Assembly (NCBI RefSeq): GCF_015706575.1
Contig: NW_024037076.1
Span: forward strand, 22,669,286-22,733,285
Direction of reading: 5' to 3'
DNA: 64,000 nt
DNA from: Patiria miniata
Taxonomy: Eukaryota
The stretch's first letter is position 1. The number at the start of each line of letters is the position of its first letter. Shown here piece by piece: positions 8,935 through 64,000 of this stretch. The position numbers and the translations under genes were made by a program. The notes under the pieces were generated by a model. It was not told where the DNA came from, ran no database searches, and was given only the letters and a program-made list of their open reading frames with translations.

Positions 8935-9540
8935 TACTACAGCGCGTCCCAAAAATATCCGCAATATTTTTTAAGAGGCTCTAGCGTCGCCACGGAAACA
9001 CGTACCGCCATTATTTTTATACAAATTTAAAGCTTGGAATCTATATGTACATGTAGTTGGGTTTTTTTTAAAGGGTTTTGAAATAGACGCATGTCAAAAA
9101 CAAACTCAACCAATTTCAAGGAAAATCAATCATGCGATTTTTTTCTAATGTGGAAATGGTTCATCATGTTCATGATGTGACGATATCATTGCCTTTTACT
9201 GTCTGTGTTTCCTATTCTTTTAGATCAATGTAGACTACACTTTAAATGAATTTACAATATTGTTCTTCGTTTCAAGCTCAATTTTGAAATTCACGTGCCA
9301 GTATGTACCTATTCAAAAAATGCGCTCACAGTTCGACTTGAGTTTGCATCTGATGTACCGCATCATCGATTTTCTTTGAAATCGGTTGAGTTTTTTTCAA
9401 AATGCCTTTATTTGAACATGAATAATTTTAAAACTCTTTTAAATATCAACCCAATACCCGCCAGGGATAAAGTTCAGATTTTGCGTCGACTCAAGAGCCT
9501 TGCAAAACAAGCTGCGGGTATTTTGGGACACGCTGTAGTA
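8935..9540. mobile_element. Non-autonomous DNA transposon (Tc1/mariner-like, ~28-bp terminal inverted repeats, candidate TA flanks)
   Basis: Left terminal repeat TACTACAGCGCGTCCCAAAAATATCCGCA. Right end ...TGCGGGTATTTTGGGACACGCTGTAGTA is its reverse complement. TA dinucleotides sit at both junctions. There is no intact transposase ORF. Confidence 0.4.
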
Positions 9541-9884
9541 CATGGACTAAGTGCATTTCTTTTCCCTTGCTTAACAATTATTACAGAACACCTGAAATAA
9601 TCCTTGTCATGTGATTGGTGGGTCCTTGATCACGTCATAGAATTATTTGCCCAAACACACGGCGCGGCCACACTGCAAAAATAGAAATTCCATTCCACGG
9701 TGAATAAACTTCCATTGCACTGTCACACTATCGGTTGCGCTATAACACAGCTCTGATAGCTCTGATGCTGTACATTCATAGTTCCAGTTTACAAGTTACC
9801 AATCGGATGACGAGGATTTATTCAGGCATTGTATAAAACAAATAAGAATGTTCATTATATTGCAATGGAAATAATAATTTCATT

Positions 9885-39358: not shown

Positions 39359-40555
39359 AAATATTAGCAAATCCTGATAATAAACTAATGTGCATATATT
39401 CATCAGCTGACTTCTTTTCAAATGATTTTCCCAATGAGTAACACAAAATATCATACCTCATAGGTAAGGTATTTGCATACTATCTTTTATGAACTGATTG
39501 TGTGAAAATAAGACTTTTCACTGAAATTTATGAATGGCAGAGAATGTGGGATGTACATTGCTTGTCGTGCTGCATTCTTCTTGTTTTTTGTTTCAAGTTA
39601 TTTTTGGCCAACAGATTTTCTTTTTTGTCACATATAGCTTAAAAGTTGTTTTCTTTTTATTGTCTGCCAGTTGAAATCAGATAAGCAGACAGTGGAAGCC
39701 ATGTTGAGATAATTGGAGCATTTCACAATTTTCCTGGATTAAATTTTGCTTTAGTTTTTGCAACAAAATTTCACAAAAATAACTGCCAGTTCAGGTACCT
39801 AAAATTACTCCTGAACCATTGTGATATTGTGCCTTAGTGGATATATGTGTGTGTATCATTGAAAGTTGATCTGTACAGGTCATGACTGATTTCCAAGTAA
39901 CGAGTATGAATAATGTAACCAGTTAACCAAGTACTAAAAGCAATATTCATATCTACACAGGTCAAGTTAAATTGCAAGGAGAACAATACCTAGAAAGTTG
40001 AATAGTCAGTGAAAGATTTTGTTTTCTAGAAATAATGCAATACACTGGATGGAATCATGAATGTCTTTGTCAATTTTAATTGATAGGTATTTCATACTTG
40101 AGAGATTTATTTGTAAAGTTACATGTATTTAGATTTTGTCTCATAGATATTTTTTCTATATAACAGAATAATGATGTGTCTTTGAAAATTACAACAAAGG
40201 ATGATGATTTAAAAGAAAGGAGAATGTTTTTCCTAATCCGACTTTACTTATTAAAAGAATGTAACGTCTTGAATAAGCCGAGATTATGTAAACATGCATT
40301 GTTGTTTTATTTGAAAGAGGTTGACCCTGGGTTAACCTTACATTTTAACAATTTAAACATTTTAACAATTTAAACATTTTAACAAGTATTTTCTTATTTC
40401 CAATTACAAGCTGTTACGGCTGATTTTTATAACAAATTTAAGGGGTTAAAGCTATAGTCCATCATTTGCAGCCATCCGAAAAGTAACTGCCGTAATTAAT
40501 GTTGAAAAACATACTTGGTTGAAAGATAGTAAGTGGACTAAACTCCCTGTGAAAT

Positions 40556-43500
40556 TATTCTTTCTGGCAAGCTGTCATTTTGCAATTTTTGATGAAAAAT
40601 GCCGAAAAATGTAGGGTTAACCCCTTGCAATTTTTGATGAAAAATGCCATTTTTGATGCAAAATGTAAGGTTAACCCCTTGCAATTTTTGATGAAAAATG
40701 CCGAAAAATGTAAGGTTAACCCCTTGCAATTTTTGATGAAAAATGCCATTTTTGATGCAAAATGTAAGGTTAACCAATTGTTATTTTTGATGAAAAATGC
40801 CATTTTTGATGAAAAATGTAAGGTTAACCCCTTGCAATTTTTGATGAAAAATGTCGAAAAATGTAGGGTTAACCCCTTGTTATTTTCGATGAAAAATGCC
40901 GTTTTTGATGAAAAATGTAAGGTTAACCCCTTGTTATTTTTGATGAAAAATGCCGTTTTTGATGAAAAATGTAAAGTTTACCCCTTGCAATTTTTGATGA
41001 AAAATGCCATTTTTGATGAAAAATGTAAGGTTAACCCCTTGCAATTTTTGATGAAAAATGCCATTTTTGATGAAAAATGTAAGGTTAACCCCTTGCAATT
41101 TTTGATGAAAAATGTAAGGTTAACCCCTTGCAATTTTTGATGAAAAATGTAAGGTTAACCCCTTGTTATTTTCGATGAAAAATGCCATTTTTGATGAAAA
41201 ATGTAAGGCTAACCCCTTGCAAATTTTGATGAAAAATGCCGGTTTTTTTCCATGAAAATTGCCGTTTTTGATGCAAAATGTAAGGTTAACCCCTTGCAAT
41301 TTTTGATGAAAAATGCCGAAAAATGTAAGGTTAACCCCTTGTTATTTTTGATGAAAAATGCCATTTTTGATGAAAAATGTAAGGTTAACCCCTCGCAATT
41401 TTTGATGAAAAATGCCGAAAAATGTAAGGTTAACCCCTTGTTATTTTCGATGAAAAATGCCGTTTTTGATGCAAAATGTAAGGTTAACCCCTTGTTATTT
41501 TTGATGAAAAATGCCATTTTTGATGAAAAATGTAAGGTTAACCCCTTGCAATTTTTGATGAAAAATGCCGTTTTTGATGAAAAATGTAAGGTTAACCCCT
41601 TGCAATTTTTGATGAAAAATGCCATTTTTGATGAAAAATGTAAGGTTAACCCCTTGCATTTTTTGATGAAAAATGCCATTTTTGATGCAAAATGTAAGGT
41701 TAACCCCTTGCAATTTTTGATGAAAAATGTCGAAAAAAGTAAGGTTAACCCCTTGTTATTTTCGATGAAAAATGCCGTTTTTGATGAAAAATGTAAGGTT
41801 AACCCCTTGCAATTTTTGATGAAAAATGCCATTTTTGATGAAAAATGTAAGGTTAACCACTTGTTATTTTCGATAAAAAATGCCGTTTTTGATGACAAAT
41901 GTAAGGTTAACCCCTTGCAATTTTTGATGAAAAATGCCGAAAAATGTAAGGTTAACCCCTTGCAATTTTTGATGAAAAATGCCAATTTTGATGAAAAATG
42001 TTGAAAAATGTAAGGCTAACCCCTTGCAAATTTTGATGAAAAATGCCGTTTTTTTCCATGAAAATTGCCGTTTTTGATGAAAAATGTAAGGTTAACCCCT
42101 TGCATTTTTTGATGAACAATGCCATTTTTGATGCAAAATGTAAGGTTAACCCCTTGCAATTTTTGATGAAAAATGCCGAAAAATGTGAGGTTAACCCCTT
42201 GCAATTTTTGATGAAAAATGCCATTTTTGATGCAAAATGTAAGGTTAACCCCTTGTTATTTTTGATGAAAAATGCCAGTTTTGATGAAAAATGTAAGGTT
42301 AACCCCTTGCAATTTTTGATGAAAAATGCCATTTTTGATGAAAAATGTAAGGTTAACCCCTTGTTATTTTTGATGAAAAATGCCATTTTTGATGAAAAAT
42401 GTAAGGTTAACCCCTTGCAATTTTTGATGAAAAATGTCGAAAAATGTAAGGTTAACCCCTTGTTATTTTCGATGAAAAATGCCGTTTTTGATGAAAAATG
42501 TAAGGTTAACCCCTTGCAATTTTTGATGAAAAATGCCATTTTTTATGCAAAATGTAAGGTTAACCCCTTGTTATTTTTGATGAAAAATGCCATTTTTGAT
42601 GAAAAATGTAAGGTTAACCCCTTGCAATTTTTGATGAAAAATGTCGAAAAATGTAAGATTAACCCCTTGTTATTTTTGATCAAAAATGTAAGGTTAACCC
42701 CTTGCAATTTTTGATGAAAAATGCCATTTTTGATGAAAAATGTAAGGTTAACCCCTTGTTATTTTCGATGAAAAATGCCATTTTTGATGAAAAATGTAAG
42801 GTTAACCCCTTGCAATTTTTGATGAAAAATGTCGAAAAATGTAAGGCTAACCTCTTGCAATTTTTGATGAAAAAAGCCATTTTTGATGAAAAATGTAAGG
42901 TTAACCCCTTGTTATTTTCGATGAAAAATGCCATTTTTGATGAAAAATGTAAGGCTAACCCCTTGCAATTTTTGATGAAAAATGCCATTTTTGATGAAAA
43001 ATGTAAGGTTAACCCCTTGCAATTTTTGATGAAAAATGCCATTTTTGATGAAAAATGTAAGGTTAACCCCTTGCAATTTTTGATGAAAAATGTCGAAAAA
43101 TGTAAGGTTAACCCCTTGTTATTTTTGATGAAAAATGCCGTTTTTGATGAAAAATGTAAGGTTAACCCCTTGCAATTTTTGATGAAAAATGCCATTTTTT
43201 ATGCAAAATGTAAGGTTAACCCCTTGTTATTTTTGATGAAAAATGCCATTTTTGATGAAAAATGTAAGGTTAACCCCTTGCAATTTTTGATGAAAAATGT
43301 CGAAAAATGTAAGATTAACCCCTTGTTATTTTTGATCAAAAATGTAAGGTTAACCCCTTGCAATTTTTGATGAAAAATGCCATTTTTGATGAAAAATGTA
43401 AGGTTAACCCCTTGCAATTTTTGATGAAAAAAGCCATTTTTGATGAAAAATGTAAGGTTAACCCCTTGCAATTTTTGATGAAAAATGTCGAAAAATGTAA

Positions 43501-45790
43501 GGCTAACCTCTTGCAATTTTTGATGAAAAAAGCCATTTTTGATGAAAAATGTAAGGTTAACCCCTTGTTATTTTCGATGAAAAATGCCATTTTTGATGAA
43601 AAATGTAAGGCTAACCCCTTGCAATTTTTGATGAAAAATGCCATTTTTGATGAAAAATGTAAGGTTAACCCCTTGCAATTTTTGATGAAAAATTCCATTT
43701 TTGATGAAAAATGTAAGGTTAACCCCTTGCAATTTTTGATGAAAAATGTCGAAAAATGTAAGATTAACCCCTTGTTATTTTTGATCAAAAATGTAAGGTT
43801 AACCCCTTGCAATTTTTGATGAAAAATGTAAGGTTAACCCCTTGCAATTTTTGATGAAAAATGTCGAAAAATGTAAGGCTAACCCCTTGCAATTTTTGAT
43901 GAAAAATGCCATTTTTGATGAAAAATGTAAGGTTAACCCCTTGCAATTTTTGATGAAAAATGCCAGTTTTGATGAAAAATGTAAGGTTAACCCCTTGCAA
44001 TTTTTGATGAAAAATGCCATTTTTGATGAAAAATGTAAGGTTAACCCCTTGCAATTTTTGATGAAAAATGTCGAAAAATGTAAGGATAACCCCTTGTTAT
44101 TTTTGATGAAAAATGTCGTTTTTGATGAAAAATGTAAGGTTAACCCCTTGCAATTTTTGATGAAAAATGCCGTTTTTGATGAAAAATGTAAGGTTAACCC
44201 CTTGCAATTTTTGATGAAAAATGTCGAAAAATGTAAGGCTAACCCCTTGCAATTTTTGATGAAAAATGCCATTTTTGATGAAAAATGTAAGATTAACCCC
44301 TTGTTATTTTTGATCAAAAATGTAAGGTTAACCCCTTGCAATTTTTGATGAAAAATGCCATTTTTGATGAAAAATGTAAGGTTAACCCCTTGCAATTTTT
44401 GATGAAAAATGTCGAAAAATGTAAGGCTAACCCCTTGCAATTTTTGATGAAAAATGCCATTTTTGATGAAAAATGTAAGGCTAACCCCTTGCAATTTTTG
44501 ATGAAAAAAGCCATTTTTGATGAAAAATGTAAGGTTAACCCCTTGTTATTTTCGATGAAAAATGCCGTTTTTGATGAAAAATGTAAGGTTAACCCCTTGC
44601 AATTTTTGATGAAAAATGCCATTTTTGATGAAAAATGTAAGGTTAACCCCTTGTTATTTTTGATGAAAAATGCCATTTTTGATGAAAAATGTAAGGTTAA
44701 CCCCTTGTTATTTTTGATGAAAAATGCCGTTTTTGATGCAAAATGTAAAGTTTACCCCTTGCAATTTTTGATGAAAAATGTAAGGTTAACCCCTTGCAAT
44801 TTTTGATGAAAAATGCCATTTTTGATGAAAAATGTAAGGTTAACCGCTTGCAATTTTTGATGAAAAATGTCGAAAAATGTAAGGCTAACCCCTTGTTATT
44901 TTTGATGAAAAATGCCGTTTTTGATGCAAAATGTAAAGTTTACCCCTTGCAATTTTTGATGAAAAATGCCATTTTTGATGAAAAATGTAAGGTTAACCCC
45001 TTGCAATTTTTGATGAAAAATGCCATTTTTGATGAAAAATGTAAGGTTAACCCCTTGCAATTTTTGATGAAAAATGTAAGGTTAACCCCTTGCAATTTTC
45101 GATGAAAAATGCCATTTTTGATGAAAAATGTAAGGCTAACCCCTTGCAATTTTTGATGAAAAATGCCATTTTTGATGAAAAATGTAAGGTAAACCCCTTG
45201 TTATTTTCGATGAAAAATGCCATTTTTGATGAAAAATGTAAGGTTAACCGCTTGCAATTTTTGATGAAAAATGTCGAAAAATGTAAGGCTAACCCCTTGC
45301 AATTTTTGATGAAAAATGCCATTTTTGATGCAAAATGTAAGGTTAACCCCTTGTTATTTTTGATGAAAAATGCCATTTTTGATGAAAAATGTAAGGTTAA
45401 CCCCTTGCAATTTTTGATGAAAAATGTAAGGTTAACCCCTTGCAATTTTTGATGAAAAATGCCGGTTTTTTTCATGAAAATTGCCGTTTTTGATGCAAAA
45501 TGTAAGGTTAACCCCTTGTTATTTTCGATGAAAAATGCCATTTTTGATGCAAAATGTAAGGTTAACCCCTTGTTATTTTCGATGAAAAATGCCATTTTTA
45601 ATGCAAAATGTAAGGTTAACCCCTTGCAATTTTGGATGAAAAAATGCTGTGTTTGATGAAAAATGTAAGGCTAACCCCTTGCAAATTTTGATGAAAAATG
45701 CCGTTTTTTTTCCATGAAAATTGCCGTTTTTGATGCAAAATGTAAGGTTAACCCCTTGCAATTTTTGATGAAAAATTTCAAAGGGACATT
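40556..45790 (+). repeat. 54-bp AT-rich satellite (~95 copies, 5.2 kb) with higher-order periodicity, downstream of MVP
   Basis: Unit CTTGCAATTTTTGATGAAAAATGCCATTTTTGATGAAAAATGTAAGGTTAACCC, with variants (CCGAAAAATG in place of the second sub-repeat; 35-45-bp short units). A marker variant AAGATTAACCCCTTGTTATTTTTGATCAAAAATG recurs at ~42655, 43310, 43765 and 44290, giving ~455-655-bp spacing. The long ORFs on both strands are repeat artefacts. Confidence 0.9.
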
Positions 45791-56583: not shown

Positions 56584-56736
56584 CTAAGATGCTGAAATTA
56601 TGTCAAAATTATCAAACTGCGCTGATGCATAGTTAGGCATTCCCATGGCAACGAATCCATGACTGGGGATTGTCTTAGGATCTAGTGATGCAGTGAACAC
56701 CGTCTTGCCTTGGACGAATCCTGTAGCTTTGCTGTC
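56584..56736 (-). CDS. GALC: Galactocerebrosidase last coding exon
   Basis: Translates DSKATGFVQGKTVFTASLDPKTIPSHGFVAMGMPNYASAQFDNFDIISAS*. Human GALC ends ...[33 protein letters not shown]. Confidence 0.8.
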   Translation of the reverse strand, partial: DSKATGFVQGKTVFTASLDPKTIPSHGFVAMGMPNYASAQFDNFDIISAS

Positions 56737-57105
56737 CTAGAGGCAACACAGAGAAAATAAAAATGAAAACAGTGACCATCTGTGTTCAATACAAATTCGT
56801 TTACCTCGTGCTCAAAACTGCAGTTTCAAATGTATTGTAATACTAAATCTTTTAAAACTGGAATATTGTAATTTTTTAATATTTTAATGACAACTGATCC
56901 GAGGTTCATGTCAATAAAACAAATAACAAATATTTTAATTATTATTTCATAACTTGGCCAATTCAAAATCGTTAATAATAACTATCAAAATATTACAATC
57001 AAACTCATCCAAATTTGAACCAATAATATACAACCATCTAATCAACACACACATAAAGCCGTTGCTAAACTGGGACATCCTGACCAACCAACGACAATTT
57101 CTTAC

Positions 57106-57182
57106 CTGAATCAGAAGCCGCATGTTGAACCACATGTCACTCTTGACATCAACTTGACCGGAATTCAGCAGGAATCGGTGAT
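57106..57182 (-). CDS. GALC: GALC exon
   Basis: Translates (H)HRFLLNSGQVDVKSDMWFNMRLLIQ. GALC has [24 protein letters not shown]. The phase links to the flanking exons. Confidence 0.7.
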
Positions 57183-57723
57183 CTGAATTGAAAAATATAC
57201 ATTAAATTGGTCACTTAATAACAATAATAAAGTGTTTTACAGTTATTACCCCTGAGACCAGTTTTCTACAGCAGCTCTAGACCAGCGCACTCTGGTCTCT
57301 ACCTTCACAGATACCCATTTATACTCCTTGATGGAGAGAGGCAATTGTAGAAAAGTCTTGCCCAAGAACACAAGCACCATGCTCCCCATCAGGGTTTGAC
57401 TCATGTACCACGGCACATGAGTCAAAACTGTAACCACTGACCACAGCGCTACAGCTTTGCCTTGACAGTAGATCATTGATAAGCCAGGTGCTTTTCTCAG
57501 CTGACTGAATTTGACTAGTCACTGTGCTTGCTAAAATTGTAATCAGACTGTTGGTGACTAGCCTGTGTATAAAGGCATGGTAGGGTAACAAGATTGATAT
57601 TTTTGACTGTCTGTGACTGTTCAGACAGCAGGAGGGTTTAATCAATTACTTAATGATTACAAAGGTAAATAGTTAATACCCAAAATAGCTGAAAGGCTCT
57701 GTGATATATAACAATAAACTTAC

Positions 57724-57881
57724 GTATGTCCGAGTAAACAGCAAATGTCCCATTGGAGTAAACAATAAAGAACAGTCCTGTTGCCACGACAACCTTACAG
57801 CCACCATCGTTGATACGTTGAGCAAGAAATGCACCGGTATTATCTCCAAGCTTGACATCAACAGAAACGTCGGCATTCTGC
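57724..57881 (-). CDS. GALC: GALC exon
   Basis: Translates (W)QNADVSVDVKLGDNTGAFLAQRINDGGCKVVVATGLFFIVYSNGTFAVYSDI. GALC has [49 protein letters not shown]. Confidence 0.8.
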
Positions 57882-58370
57882 CTACAATGAATATAAACAG
57901 CAAGGTAGTTCTTACATTACAGTGTAACATATAGGGAGAATAAATAACAAATCATTATAAATAGAATAACCAAATATACCAAATGCCTACACAAGTACCA
58001 TATTGGCAAACCAAACCTGTATGGATCGGCAAAAAATAGGCTAAAATGTTATGATGTGTCAGTCAGATGAACACTATAAAACCTCTTAGAGTTCCCTGAA
58101 ATCTAATCCCCCTTAAATCCTGCCTCCTCTTATGATAACATGTCTTATATAAGTTGATAATAAGCAGGACAAGTTCTTCTCAGAACTAATATCTTCTAAG
58201 CAGTAGTTATTAACACATGGTGTTACCGCAAAACCGAAACGATGTCTTATATTCCTCCCATCTGCAATCTGGTCTAGCTGTACCGATTCTTGATCATAAA
58301 ACACAAACTAAGGACAAAGAAAAAACAGACAGGCATACCAACTACAGACGATAAGATCAAATCCATTTAC

Positions 58371-58545
58371 CAGGAGTAGTTGCCAATGACAGAGATAGGA
58401 GACTCAGCCGCTGGACACCAATGGACTGGTGACTCAAGGACAACCTGTTCCATCACCAATTTATGAGTCGGGTCACCAGACTCTCGAATCTCCCAAACAC
58501 CGGCCTGGTCAGCAAAGTTACTAGCTTCACTGAATTCTGGGTAAT
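58371..58545 (-). CDS. GALC: GALC exon
   Basis: Translates (N)YPEFSEASNFADQAGVWEIRESGDPTHKLVMEQVVLESPVHWCPAAESPISVIGNYS. GALC has [21 protein letters not shown]...ISIIGDYNW. Confidence 0.85.
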
Positions 58546-58837
58546 CTGGAAAACAACAAATGAACTGAATGGTAAAGGTCTATCATATAAAACTTAACTG
58601 ACTATTGTTGACAATTTGCTGCTGATAACTTGAAAGCAAAAATATGAAAAGAAGAAAATGAACTGCTATTTAGAGAAAAAACATACAGAAAGAGAGAAAT
58701 GCAGCTACAAAGGCACAGCACACAGAATTTAACTGCTTCAACCTAAATACTACTACAGATTCGAAGCCTTATCAAGAAGTGAACTTTGTTAGGAGTTAGG
58801 TTAGGCTGCATAGATGATATAATTGAAAACAACTCAC

Positions 58838-58979
58838 TGTCAAAGTTATCTGAGTAAGGTACAGGGAAGGGGGCAGATGGCGGGGGTGTAGGGTAGTTCC
58901 CCTTATAACCCCTCTCAGTGGTTGTCAGGGTGTAGACCTCATCAGGATTCAGACTTAAGGTGAAACTGCCATTCACAAC
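58838..58979 (-). CDS. GALC: GALC exon
   Basis: Translates [51 protein letters not shown] has [45 protein letters not shown]. Confidence 0.9.
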
Positions 58980-59316
58980 CTTAAAAAATTAAGCAAGAGG
59001 CAAAATATTCAAATCCAGCATTAAAAAAAAACAGAGAAAATCAACATGTTTAACCAACTAGGCTTGACAAGTCAAGCAAGTCCTAAATTTAGGACATTTG
59101 ATATACTCTGTGACTCAGTCGGGGAGCCAGACAGTCAGTCAGTCAGTCAGAGGACAATTGGCCCACCCTTCAGGTCCAGCCAAAAAACAGTAGTTTCAAA
59201 CCAACAAATTTGTTTTTGCCAAGCAATATCAAAAATCTCATGCAGAAAAAAATGATTTTAAGTCTCAACCTTACATCAGATATTTTAGACAAATATTTCA
59301 GACATCAATAGCTTAC

Positions 59317-59406
59317 CTTAATTGGATTCTTCTTGACAAATATTGTTGATGACTGGCCATTGAACGTAAGCTTGGAATACCACACATTGAGACTGCTAAC
59401 TTTGGC
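59317..59406 (-). CDS. GALC: GALC exon
   Basis: Translates AKVSSLNVWYSKLTFNGQSSTIFVKKNPIK. GALC has [30 protein letters not shown]. Confidence 0.75.
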
Positions 59407-59716
59407 CTGAAAAGGTAGAAGAAAATAAGAATACAGAATGCAGACCCAATTTTGCATTGGATCAGAAATACAATTTTTGAGAAATAAATAAAAACTGTTG
59501 CAAACTTCTGACGTATTAGATCAAACTGAAATGTAAAATTATAAAATTTAGGGAGCATAATGTTTAGATTGTAGACAGATCTTTCTTTTTCAAAGTTCCT
59601 GTCACGATAAAAACATCAGGACCTCCAACTTGATTGTTTGTAGATAATGTGTCATCACAAATGTTAACTGAATTCATATTTTGCTATTGTTCTAATAAGG
59701 ACAACATTTTACTCAC

Positions 59717-59806
59717 AAAACTGCCTTGGAGAGTAAACTTGGCTGTCTGGGCTGCCACACTGTAAGGTGGTAAGTAGGGCCAGGTACACTTTGAGTGATC
59801 ATAGCT
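59717..59806 (-). CDS. GALC: GALC exon
   Basis: Translates SYDHSKCTWPYLPPYSVAAQTAKFTLQGSF. GALC has [30 protein letters not shown]. Confidence 0.85.
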
Positions 59807-60185
59807 CTGCAAAGAATACAAGTTGTGAATAAAATTGTATTGTTTATTACAAGTTTTTTTCTTGCTTGGAACTGTTTCCTTGATTCTTTTTACACTTCAA
59901 AAATGACATATCTTTAATATCTTTTAATATGAAGAGGGTCCGAAAACAGAATATTATTACACAATTTTTCTACAAACCAAAATTAAAATGAAACTTCAAA
60001 TTAACTTCAGCATCCTGTCTTTCTGCATTTTTAATATGAAGGAAAGTGAACTGTGACCTTTCACATGAAAGCAGTTTAGCAAACAATCTTTCTACAACAG
60101 GTCTTTCACACTTGAATAAAATTCAAAATAGTTTCTGTTTTATTCTGTGACAGTTGAATAGATTAATTCTTTAGTGTGTACATAC

Positions 60186-60319
60186 CATAGTCTCTATAAT
60201 TATGGTCAAATTAACACCGTCTGTCATGGATACAAAGCTTCCTCCTTTGTCAAGACGCTGCACTCCAGACTTGTGCTTCAAATACATCCATCCCGGATCA
60301 GTAAACTGAGTGGTATGAG
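60186..60319 (-). CDS. GALC: GALC exon
   Basis: Translates [49 protein letters not shown] has [43 protein letters not shown]. Confidence 0.9.
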
Positions 60320-60679
60320 CTGAACAAAAATATACAGTCAATCAGACAATTACGTGTAGCTGATTCAGAATCTGTGTCTAGGGCTACAGATGTTCACGGT
60401 AGTGTGTCAATCTTTGCCATGATGAAGTCTACATGGTGAAGTTAGCAATACGAGTAAGTTTGAGGGAGAACTACGTATGTCTGGGGGTTTGCATGGTTCT
60501 GTTAAGATCCAGGAAACTCAACATGTTGTACAGAAAGAACACTCAATAAATAACTAATTCCTAATGTGGTCTTACAACTTAGGTTATTGATACCAGCTTT
60601 ATAACTGATCAGCCTTCATAAGTCCATCATGTTAACGGCAAACTCTCTAGACGTCTTACGGAGCGCCCTCATTACATAC

Positions 60680-60842
60680 CCGATATCCAGATTGTATCAG
60701 TGACCTCAAAGTGCGAACTCCATGGCTCGTTGGCTGTCATAAGTCCGGCACGTGCATATTTCAAAGCGTCGTAGTAAGATGCGATCAGGTTCCAGGAGAT
60801 TGTAGAAGTCATCATTCCATTCACGTAGTTCTGGTTCAAGGT
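60680..60842 (-). CDS. GALC: GALC exon
   Basis: Translates [58 protein letters not shown] has [54 protein letters not shown]. Confidence 0.9.
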
Positions 60843-61146
60843 CTGCAGATTGCAAGTCAGGAATTCCAATCAATTTGCAATGAGCGATACAGGTGCAGTG
60901 CCAACAAATTTTCCTTTCAACCAGTTCTTCTGAGAGCTACACAAACTCACAAAAGAGATTTCTTTCACATGGTGCAACAACAAACTTCCTCTAATGACAC
61001 AAATTATATCAACAATCAATTTTTTTGTGGTTTATTGAACCAACAATGATAGTGTGCTTGCTTGTATACAATAATATAACTTTAAAAAAACCTACACATA
61101 TTCATTAAAAAAAAATAAAAGACAAAAACCCACCACTTTCACTTAC

Positions 61147-61264
61147 CCTGGCCCAACATCCTGCCCCAACTTCATTATTGTGCGTGTTGTAATCTTCCGA
61201 TGCCCAGATGGTCTTGCCAGTTTCCAACGTGTAGTTGGTGACATGAGTTCCGGGGTAATGCAAC
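61147..61264 (-). CDS. GALC: GALC exon
   Basis: Translates (G)[43 protein letters not shown] has [39 protein letters not shown]. Confidence 0.9.
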
Positions 61265-61801
61265 CTGTATGAAGTTTTACATTTGTTTTCATTACAATTA
61301 TGCAATTTAGAGTGCATCAACAAATTATGGTGCATAATTTTGAAAATGTCAGTTCATGATGGCCTCATAATCTTTAGTTTAGATGTAATTTATTAGCTAT
61401 TTGATCATTGTCCTCCACAATAGAAAGTTCTAATCTTTGAAAATATGCATGTCTAAACACAGATGGTGCTTAATACATGGTGCAGTGACATTTCAAAATC
61501 TTTACCGGTATTGATAATGTTTAAGTGCTTCAAGCAAACAACTTTGTAAACACAATCATAACACGTTAATTACAACCTGAGTTTAGCAAGTTTAGAGTAA
61601 CAGGAGTGATTAGTCCATTGACTATTGAAGTTAGAGTGTCATGATTACAGCAGAATGGTAGGTGCGTGGGTTTTAAGGAAACACAGGAGATCAAAGGAGT
61701 ATGAGTAGAAAATATGAAAGAAAATAATAAATGAACCTCAGCCACCGAACAGTTGCAGTCCAATTGATTGATGAAATAGGGAATACATGTGTTTGAATCA
61801 T

Positions 61802-61970
61802 ACCCAATAATAGCCACATCTTTGGCAATATCTGGGTCGTTGTGTATCGCGATACTGATGAATTCAAGATTGTCAGCTGCTACAATTAGCATCTCAGAAA
61901 GACCTTTCTAATCCAGTGTTTTTCGGAGGACTTTCGTGTATTCAACATCAAAGGGTCGTTCATTCCATAT
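61802..61970 (-). pseudogene. GALC: Decayed duplicate (pseudo-exon) of the GALC exon at 62634-62800, lying in the intervening intron
   Basis: Translates IWNERPFDVEYTKVLRKTLD*KGLSEMLIVAADNLEFISIAIHNDPDIAKDVAIIG. The true exon reads IWNERPYNSTYIKTLRSSLNKAGLSHIAVVAADGKLAISRDILMDKALAAAVQIIG. There is an in-frame TAG (61908-61910), no AG acceptor (ctgat|ATATGG) and only a GTATGA donor. Nucleotide identity is about 60-65%. Confidence 0.65.
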
Positions 61971-62633
61971 CAGATAATAAAAGAAGGAAAGTCACCCAGA
62001 AGCTATCCAAAATAAGCTTTTTGTTTGCCATGAAGGTGTGGCACATCCAAAAACATATGACAAAGTTTGAAACAAGCCAAAATACAGCTTCTCTCACTAG
62101 AACCACATATTGGGCATGTTTTCAAAGCAAGGAGGTCCAAAGATTGACAGTGCTCTCAGTCATTTTCCCTAATGACTGCAATAAAGGGTCATCACATCAA
62201 ATTGGCACCAGACAATTTGTAGCAAAATCAAGTTGGCTGCAAGTTAGTTAAATTAACTGTTAGCAAATATGAGTTGCATTTCACTAACAGAACAAAGACT
62301 GTCTAATGTTCTGAACCCATGCATTCTGAGATTATGCAATAGAAAAGTAGTTGTGTATCATATCTCCTGACGACTAGTGTAGAGTATACCGTCCGAAATG
62401 TTGACTTTCCCCCAGGTTTTTTTTCAGAACCTAACAAACTCACAAAAGAGATTTGTCAAGTGGCGCAAACGCAAATCTTTATGCCATTGCTATCTTCACC
62501 ATGCAAACGTTCAAAGTTTATCATGAGCACTGTATTCTTAATGAAATGCACTCAGTTGTTTATGTCTGCAAAACAAGAAAAATGAAATATCACCAAAGCA
62601 AGGAAGAGGAAAAGATCAACTCAAGCCTCCTAC

Positions 62634-62800
62634 CCTATAATCTGAACAGCTGCAGCCAATGCTTTATCCATCAAGATATCACGACTGATTGCTAATTTTC
62701 CATCAGCAGCAACCACTGCTATATGGCTGAGGCCAGCTTTGTTTAGAGAGGATCTCAAGGTCTTGATGTATGTAGAGTTATATGGCCTTTCATTCCAAAT
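62634..62800 (-). CDS. GALC: GALC exon
   Basis: Translates IWNERPYNSTYIKTLRSSLNKAGLSHIAVVAADGKLAISRDILMDKALAAAVQII(G). GALC has [57 protein letters not shown]. Confidence 0.9.
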
Positions 62801-63152
62801 CTAGAATTGGGAATATTGAGTTCTTCAATAAATATGGACCAATTTGTACTCTTGACTTTAAGCATCAAGTCACATACGAGTTGATAAACAAATTGAAAAA
62901 CGACAACAAATTGGTGAAAATCAAAACTCAGGCAAGCAGCAGCAACATTACCCTAAGTAATCCGATATAAGAAGCATATTGTGCTTCCATTCATTCCAAT
63001 TCTATCATTGGAAGAAAATAAATTCTTGAGAATCAAAACTTTTAAAAATGTTGGAAAAAAATTAATAAATACACAATTTGAACTCATTTCATTCCACACT
63101 ATATCTTGGCTCTTCATTTTTGTGGAAAAGTTGTAAAATTGATTTTACTTAC

Positions 63153-63317
63153 CCCAATATAATCAATGGTTAAATTGTGGTGAGTTTTTGCTCCTTGTAT
63201 CCATTTGATGATGTAGTCAACAGTGACATCGATATTGACATAGGGACTTTGTTGGCCATTCCCAATCCAGCCGGGGAAAGCCCAAGGAAGGCCATACAGC
63301 TTGATGCTTGGATTGCG
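63153..63317 (-). CDS. GALC: GALC exon
   Basis: Translates [59 protein letters not shown] has [55 protein letters not shown]. Confidence 0.9.
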
Positions 63318-63627
63318 CTGCAGAAAGATGCAACATGAAACAGTAGTGGCTAAAAAAAAACAACCAAAAGGGGAGGGGCCAGGGAAGAGACTGGGGGGGG
63401 GGGGGGGGAGGGGCGGACACCACTCCCTGCTAGAGCCAAATGAACCCCAGCCACCCCCTCCCCCTTTGGCCTGATTCGTTCCCCACCCCCCTTTCCCTGC
63501 ACTTACAAAACAGATTCAGATGGTGTACATTTTGAACATCAATCAAAAACCTCATAGGTGCTATATACAGCTGCCCCCCCCCCAAAAAAAATGTGTAAGA
63601 ACACCCCAAAACAAGTCTCTCTTTTAC

Positions 63628-63780
63628 CTTTTTAGCCTCCTTCATCAGCCACCATTCATATCCTCTCTGATAATTCTCATCGTTAGCTGAATGCATATGC
63701 GATGACTCAGTTCCGTCAGTGCTTTGTGAGTCTCCACCAATCTCAACCTTTAAGATGTGAAGTGATGCTCCAAAATTTGG
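63628..63780 (-). CDS. GALC: GALC exon (the 5' exons lie beyond the window end)
   Basis: Translates [55 protein letters not shown] has [51 protein letters not shown]. Confidence 0.9.
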
Positions 63781-64000
63781 CTGTTAACGGGCAAAATCAG
63801 AACTACATCAATTAGTTTTTTTTTTTTATTAAACTTCATTTCGTGCAATTTTCTTCTCCACAAAACAATTGATTGACAATTATGTCTGGGAAACACAGTT
63901 TTGTGGTTAAGTTTTTCATATCAATTGTGCAGCCAAAACAGTTATAAATCAGTTACAGTGTATAGCAAATAAACTGTTATTCCTTGGAAAAGGTCAAATT

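Follow-up and report, generated by a model that had tools for sequence, protein, structure and literature searches.

A galactocerebrosidase-like gene of the sea star Patiria miniata carries, in the intron downstream of the exon that encodes its catalytic acid/base, a stretch of DNA that resembles this exon a second time (positions 61802-61970 of the window, i.e. of the whole 64,000-nt stretch of DNA analysed here). Is this copy an alternative exon that is still in use, an exon that has died, an element kept for regulation, or a fortuitous resemblance? A sequence-only reading of the window had favored an old tandem exon duplication, the copy of which, here called psiB, has since decayed.

The host gene and a second copy of its acid/base exon

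The GH59 gene was mapped from about 63783 to 56605 on the minus strand with an approximate human GALC query that served for exon location only. Splicing by hand at GT-AG sites yields a CDS of 594 aa within the window, which is identical at 594/594 positions to residues 73-666 of XP_038045329.1, the first 72 residues being encoded past position 64000, and the reading frame is open across all 594 of these codons. RefSeq gives a single product for the gene, the same as this CDS, which contains the exon designated A below. The protein has the GH59 catalytic, middle and C-terminal domains (PF02057, PF17387 and PF21708, precomputed for the entry P0151, the sequence of which equals that of the window CDS) and aligns with mouse GALC over 150 and 166 residues (E = 7e-50 and 5e-66). 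Its WNE and SED motifs are placed opposite E182 and E258 of mouse GALC, which act as acid/base and nucleophile, respectively (PMC4445328), and N181 is also kept. The gene and its exon cluster are arranged as follows:

56605-63783, minus strand: host gene, Patiria miniata galactocerebrosidase-like XP_038045329.1, with residues 73-666 inside the window
63153-63317, minus strand: constitutive upstream exon (RNPSIK...TIDYIG), the donor of which feeds the exon cluster
63064-63098, minus strand: candidate fourth, degraded 5' exon fragment, atag/TG TGG AAT GAA ATG..., translation VWNEMSSNCVFI
62878-63001, minus strand: psiC, heavily decayed C-type copy with AG acceptor ('gatag'), R>W, a 2-nt insertion and stops
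62634-62800, minus strand: exon A, the sole live cluster member in the window gene, residues I179-G234, including N181 and E182
61804-61970, minus strand: psiB, B-type version of the 167-nt alternative exon, no longer functional, equal to exon A in length and phase
61147-61264, minus strand: constitutive downstream exon (LHYPG...CWAR), with the nucleophile E257 and S260N at 61186-61188

The three copies psiC, A and psiB are flanked by the two constitutive exons on the minus strand, with no constitutive exon among them, and the order of the cluster is psiC-A-psiB, with a possible fragment in front. The splice signals of exon A are canonical (cag/.../gtagga). Elsewhere in the window a long satellite-like tandem repeat, with GC down to about 0.30, extends over positions 40500-45600 or so and contains repetitive ORFs in both orientations ('...KCKVNPLQFLMKNAIFDE...' and '...FFIKNCKGLTLHFSSKMA...'), a tRNA gene (25154-25226, minus strand, 45 bits) is the sole Rfam match at gathering threshold, and a 144-aa ORF that begins with 'MLKGVIYKLLDEKWKTFGRFNFCARLAFFLLYLAVITTAF...' lies at 731-1165 on the minus strand. 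The latter looks like the membrane-spanning part of a TRP-type cation channel and is probably an exon of a neighboring gene.

The minus strand of 61802-61970 translates to IWNERPFDVEYTKVLRKTLD and KGLSEMLIVAADNLEFISIAIHNDPDIAKDVAIIG, separated by a stop, and exon 62634-62800 to IWNERPYNSTYIKTLRSSLNKAGLSHIAVVAADGKLAISRDILMDKALAAAVQII(G), exactly as in the sequence-only reading. The two peptides align without gaps, with 26/55 identical and 33/55 positive positions (pairwise blastp E = 2e-15), and both copies comprise 167 nt, start in phase 0 and end in phase 2, so the collinear duplicate of a GALC exon stands. Also, residues ~195-251 of the human GALC query are matched equally well by both (52.0 and 51.6 bits), and N181 and E182 are preserved in psiB. 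The 169-nt stretch proposed initially is homologous as described, but the equivalent of the exon is 61804-61970, the remaining 2 nt being the GT of the donor, and the suggested nucleotide identity of 60-65% is revised to 49% (82/167, ungapped). Indeed, blastn of A against psiB finds a single 13-nt match (E = 0.13), i.e. no significant DNA similarity, and DNA local alignments of A with B or with the upstream intron score inside the shuffled range. The similarity of A and psiB is significant at the protein level alone, where a proper aligner does recover it. The copy also accounts, as supposed, for a spurious 108-aa ORF at 61566-61892, which starts at an internal Met of psiB and runs through its donor into the intron; for genome annotation, psiB both explains this ORF and calls for caution against being annotated as an exon itself.

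Live B exons in relatives and the lesions of psiB

In RefSeq, three isoforms of equal length each are found for another P. miniata gene (XP_038045330-332, the Patiria paralogue in the following), for Acanthaster planci, and for Asterias rubens and A. amurensis, and within each of these species the differences between the isoforms, which are predicted models, are confined to the 56 alternative codons. The isoforms X1, X2 and X3 are of type B, A and C, respectively. Two versions are present in the brittle star Amphiura and in the urchins Diadema and Lytechinus, and one version in 2 crinoids. A search with the psiB peptide matched a 72-aa ORF from marine metagenomes (P0001, 73% identity), the longest contig of which (L001, 2609 nt) contains an A-type exon (365-531) and a B-type exon (1775-1941) in tandem, in the order of the window and of 167 nt each. 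Their signals are canonical (...ccag/ATTTGG...GG/gtaggc for A and ...tttttgctccag/ATATGG...GG/gtacgc for B), and the codon at the position of the TAG in the window is CAG. Both exons are 56/56 identical to the corresponding exons of the A. rubens isoforms X2 and X1, and the contig is referred to as Asterias-like in the following. The alignment of the window with this contig is limited to the exons plus a few adjoining bases and does not extend into the introns. In the contig, a weak match (LRLLRVLLDAHS) located between the two exons was dismissed as chance, with neither the WNE motif nor the VAAD core nearby. In an exhaustive phmmer search with the intact B peptide no other B-type protein was found (isoforms are perhaps merged in 50%-identity clusters), and a scan of JGI metagenomes did not reveal a B-type exon. 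Asterias-like sea-star nuclear DNA, the exons of which equal those of A. rubens at the protein level, recurs in coastal plankton metagenome assemblies in ENA, including the SOLA series (L001-L006), and presumably stems from gametes, larvae or shed cells.

The functional tandem pair that was to be looked for in related species is therefore present in the Asterias-like contig, with canonical splice sites for A and B; its intact B exon at the same place agrees with an old tandem duplication that has decayed in the window gene, and the use of B in isoforms of Acanthaster, Asterias and the second Patiria gene bears out the proposal of a decayed candidate for a mutually exclusive exon. These data also bear on the reading that the similarity reflects chance or low complexity, or that a stray fragment of another GALC gene was copied into the intron rather than duplicated in tandem. 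The DNA identity of 49% to exon A and the blank result of blastn would suit such an origin, but the gap-free protein alignment (E = 2e-15), the identical length, phase and boundaries, the orthologous exons with splice sites in the same intron and order in the Asterias-like contig, and the B-type exons in isoforms of three other sea-star species do not. Protein homology, the tandem pair of the contig and isoform usage have already refuted this reading, which is virtually untenable.

A different picture emerges for the borders and the coding sequence of psiB itself:

61971-61973, minus strand: lost 3' splice acceptor, cTG for cAG (Asterias orthologue tttttgctccag/ATATGG)
61935-61937, minus strand: I12T; I190 is invariant in all 32 aligned echinoderm sequences
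61908-61910, minus strand: in-frame TAG, codon 21; the Asterias-like contig has CAG (Q), and both the Patiria paralogue and Acanthaster have K
61802-61803, minus strand: kept GT of the donor (GTATGA), read from the sequence

The TAG, which is a single base away from CAG or AAG, was gained where the sequence-only reading had placed it, and the loss of the AG acceptor is likewise confirmed by the comparison with Asterias. The lysine thought to be conserved at the site of the stop is present in the B exons of the Patiria paralogue and Acanthaster, but is replaced by glutamine in Asterias B. The GTATGA donor is retained as reported, but is not notably weak if compared with exon A (GTAGGA) or the live Asterias B exon (GTACGC), and the polypyrimidine tract (61974-61990) is still in place. 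A further change relative to the live B exons is E47D, while V9I and M27T, which distinguish psiB from paralogue B, both appear to be placed on the side of the paralogue by the outgroups. Apart from this, psiB matches the live B exons at 51/56 (Patiria paralogue), 48/56 (Acanthaster) and 41/56 (Asterias) positions and keeps 10/11 B-diagnostic residues. Its differences from Asterias B number 9/7/23 at the first, second and third codon positions, and the Nei-Gojobori dN/dS is 0.19 (bootstrap 95% interval 0.07-0.43), indicating that psiB was under purifying selection through nearly its whole history and that its death is recent.

Could psiB still be a working alternative exon, such that TAG and cTG are assembly errors, belong to a rare null haplotype, or are circumvented by the use of another acceptor? 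Each lesion is one base change, and the remainder of the exon is nearly undamaged, with 51/56 positions matching live B and with donor and polypyrimidine tract intact; it is also conceivable that the two lesions occur in the assembled haplotype only. By contrast, two independent disabling changes lie inside 65 nt and are accompanied by the replacement of the invariant I190, RefSeq has one product for the window gene versus three for the paralogue, and psiC represents an earlier loss of another cluster member in the same gene copy. As for other acceptors, the nearest upstream AG is 32 nt off and brings a TGA into frame, and the AG within the TAG codon keeps the frame, but drops the catalytic WNE and is without a polypyrimidine tract. 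A working psiB is therefore quite unlikely.

A regulatory role, for instance as a poison exon leading to nonsense-mediated decay or as an intronic splicing element, would fit the conserved appearance of psiB within an intron whose remainder does not align with the Asterias-like contig, and the in-frame stop is what a poison exon has. However, an exon that has lost its AG acceptor is not included by the major spliceosome, the region has no Rfam match, and the recent coding constraint (third-position bias, dN/dS of 0.19) fully accounts for the conservation, so that such a role is highly improbable. Instead, psiB has neither a functional set of splice sites nor an open frame, both of which are found for the orthologous exons in the Asterias-like contig, and it combines homology to a live exon with lesions that block inclusion or translation. 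It is thus a pseudo-exon, a former but no longer current member of a mutually exclusive exon cluster, and with the AG missing, the stop in frame and a single RefSeq product it is expected to be absent from Patiria transcripts.

Decay of the cluster in a young paralogue

The wreckage is not confined to psiB. Of five TGGAATGAA sites (W-N-E) on both strands of the 64-kb window, four are on the minus strand at 61959-63096 (1.83 are expected from shuffles for the whole window), and two of them, besides those of A and psiB, lie inside the 352-nt intron upstream of A. One belongs to psiC, which spans about 124 nt versus 167, corresponding to a net deletion of about 43 nt, plus frameshifts. From position 63001 it reads AAT TGG AAT GAA TGG AAG CAC AAT, [AT], GCT TCT TAT ATC GGA TTA CTT AGG GTA ATG TTG, and after removal of the 2-nt insertion the translation NWNEWKHN-ASYIGLLRVML is identical to paralogue C (IWNERKHNASYIKLLRATL) at 13/19 positions, including the C-specific KHNASYI. 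Past the deletion the GTTGCTGCTG (V-A-A-D) core is kept, followed by GTATGT at 62877. A tblastn search of the whole window recovers two pieces of psiC (E = 0.63 and 1.6), which lie collinearly on the same strand within the 352-nt intron. The damage to psiC is clearly older than that to psiB. The stretch at 63064-63098, the similarity of which is weak beyond about 12 nt, may be a fourth exon fragment.

The alternative exon covers the segment around the acid/base. In an AlphaFold2 model of the Patiria protein (mean pLDDT of 74 overall and 73-93 in the exon region) it comprises beta4 (176-179), the loop with N181 and E182, alpha4 (187-199), beta5 (206-210), a loop (211-214), alpha5 (215-229) and the start of beta6. 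Invariant among the versions of the exon are WNE, YI, LR, VAAD and the terminal IG, and the B-diagnostic residues concentrate directly after E182, in the beta5-alpha5 loop and in the N-terminal turns of alpha5. The catalytic face of TIM-barrel glycosidases is made up of the loops that follow the strands. The A, B and C exons probably yield isozymes of equal chemistry, with pocket surroundings that, judging from the model, would differ. Since 167 equals 3 x 55 + 2, the inclusion of zero or two cluster exons shifts the reading frame, and the frame itself would thereby enforce mutual exclusivity.

How old are the exon types, and how old is the second gene? In neighbor-joining (NJ) trees, which were built on 43-56 columns of the alternative-exon peptide, the B exons of sea stars form a clade in 995/1000 bootstraps with the 56-aa peptides, which is joined by Amphiura X2 in 872/1000; hence the B type predates the split of the sea-star orders, and it probably predates the split of sea stars and brittle stars. 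Exon A of the window gene is joined to its counterpart in the paralogue in 1000/1000 bootstraps and psiB to the B exon of the paralogue in 657/1000, and by sequence comparison the duplication of the whole gene appears recent and specific to the Patiria lineage. The trees neither placed the A/C split nor related the urchin versions to the sea-star types. In Amphiura filiformis, the isoforms X1 and X3 (P0285 and P0286) also differ in a second block around residues 500-555 (columns 498-556 of alignment A4), with 28 differences at the same length, which suggests another pair of alternative exons in the C-terminal half. In 3 gastropods, a leech and a bird an intron after '...YIK' divides the same coding segment into parts of 39 and about 128 nt, and the gastropod and leech GALC loci, which hold a single copy of it, give no date for the cluster. 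The echinoderm copies seen as DNA are all fused 167-nt units, and an intron loss before the echinoderm exon duplications would explain this arrangement.

Outside the alternative exon 39 positions distinguish the window protein from the Patiria paralogue. Polarization with the outgroups Acanthaster and Asterias assigns 23 changes to the branch of the window gene and 14 to that of the paralogue, which is not a significant difference (binomial p = 0.19). Changes at sites that are 100% conserved in 28 other echinoderm sequences make up 7/23 on the window branch and 1/14 on the paralogue branch; the seven are S260N, I274T, P301K, Y318F, H349R, H374Y and R381W. With mouse GALC numbered as in 4CCC (chain index + 14), N260 of the window protein is opposite mouse S261 and W381 is opposite mouse R380, while these sites are S and R in the paralogue as well as in 28 other sequences from echinoderms. 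The second of these codons is located as follows:

59780-59782, minus strand: W381 codon, aligned to galactose-binding mouse R380; Arg in all 28 other echinoderm sequences

S261 and R380 are listed among the residues of mouse GALC that form hydrogen bonds with galactose hydroxyls (PMC4445328). Given N260 and W381 in their place, the galactosylceramidase activity of the window paralogue is uncertain, and the protein is treated as GALC-like and not as an enzymatic equivalent of GALC; the paralogue may be either under relaxed constraint or gaining a different specificity.

Taken together, psiB is very probably a dead mutually exclusive exon of a C-A-B cluster in a young, diverging sea-star GH59 paralogue. 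The live cluster would consist of three tandem 167-nt exons, C-A-B, exactly one of which enters each transcript; for the live Patiria gene, known from protein isoforms, the order C-A-B is presumed. Three isozymes would result that have the catalytic N181 and E182 in common and differ in the loops and helices after beta4 and beta5. The gene would then have been duplicated in the Patiria lineage, leaving the window copy as a young duplicate in which exon A alone works. Exon C would have been disabled first and is now full of indels, and exon B would have been disabled recently by the change of its acceptor from cAG to cTG and of K (AAG) to TAG. The same gene copy has also swapped two galactose-contacting residues (S260N and R381W), so that the exon losses could be part of a general divergence or relaxation of the paralogue. 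This order of events is put forward as the likely course. If so, the locus offers a dated snapshot of alternative exons dying after gene duplication: about 1.2 kb hold a live exon, an exon freshly killed by two point lesions, and an old, indel-rich wreck, and the sister gene uses all three.

Comparison with known exon clusters and GALC enzymes

An interchangeable exon for the acid/base segment, in two to three versions, occurs in sea stars, brittle stars, urchins and many non-mammalian vertebrates, where it is present in RefSeq and was not found in the literature searched. Human GALC deficiency leads to Krabbe disease, and the question is raised whether the exon versions tune the use of substrates or cofactors by a lysosomal lipid hydrolase. 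The literature search revealed no paper that links GALC with mutually exclusive exons, including mammalian GALC at the same position, and two catalogues of tandemly duplicated exons in human genes do not mention GALC in their main text.

Among vertebrates, the 128-nt exon occurs a second time in the GALC locus of the bird Chionis minor (L015). This copy, at about 9429-9555, is intact, has AG and GT sites, is outside the annotated product and is flanked by the 39-nt exon and the annotated 128-nt exon, all within one gene. Furthermore, an alternative version, 'IIAADGNWE-IA...DPYLNDAVQIIG', replaces the canonical 'IIASDNLWEPIS...' in annotated entries from elephant shark, coelacanth, two caecilians, frog, lungfish and goldfish (P0038, P0225, P0237, P0201, P0261, P0248 and P0212). 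A 43-residue tree supports either grouping, with the vertebrate pair and the echinoderm cluster sharing one origin or arising separately, in 20-25% of bootstraps, and the differing exon structures (39 + 128 nt versus fused 167 nt) favor independent origins. It is conceivable but unlikely that both descend from one ancient deuterostome duplication that gave rise to catalytically distinct isozymes (“DNL” versus “DG” type) and that the Patiria paralogue is turning one isoform into a dedicated enzyme of new specificity; if true, the dead B and C exons of this paralogue and the changes in its sugar pocket (S261N and R380W) would represent more than simple decay. Recurrence of the kind that independent origins imply has been published for ACOX1, where the same exon was duplicated independently in several phyla, with chordate, echinoderm and mollusc origins (PMC8373072).

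Mutually exclusive homologous exons are recognized by adjacency, equal length and phase, and homology (PMC3228551). Like the catalogued tandem-duplicated exons (PMC8373072, PMC9741552), the copies described here are adjacent, on the same strand, of equal length and phase, and homologous, and as for catalogued mutually exclusive exons the isoforms of the relatives are identical apart from the swapped exon and the event is ancient, as most are. Unlike these, psiB is without an AG acceptor and has an in-frame stop. The GALC-like cluster also has three members instead of the usual two and spans the exon with the catalytic acid/base of a glycoside hydrolase.

The host protein agrees with GH59 GALC (mouse, 3ZR5 and 4CCC) in keeping PF02057, PF17387 and PF21708 as well as N181, E182 and E258, and departs from the mouse enzyme in that the window paralogue has N for S261 and W for R380. 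For vertebrate mutually exclusive exons that went through gene duplication, outcomes range from full retention in both copies to complete isoform separation (Abascal, Tress and Valencia 2015, PMC4494069). As in these cases, a gene duplication was followed in Patiria by the loss of alternative homologous exons in one paralogue. However, the Patiria pair is asymmetric, with all three exons in one copy and A alone in the other, and it is recent, so that the dead exons are visible at two stages of decay and are accompanied by changes of two substrate-binding residues.
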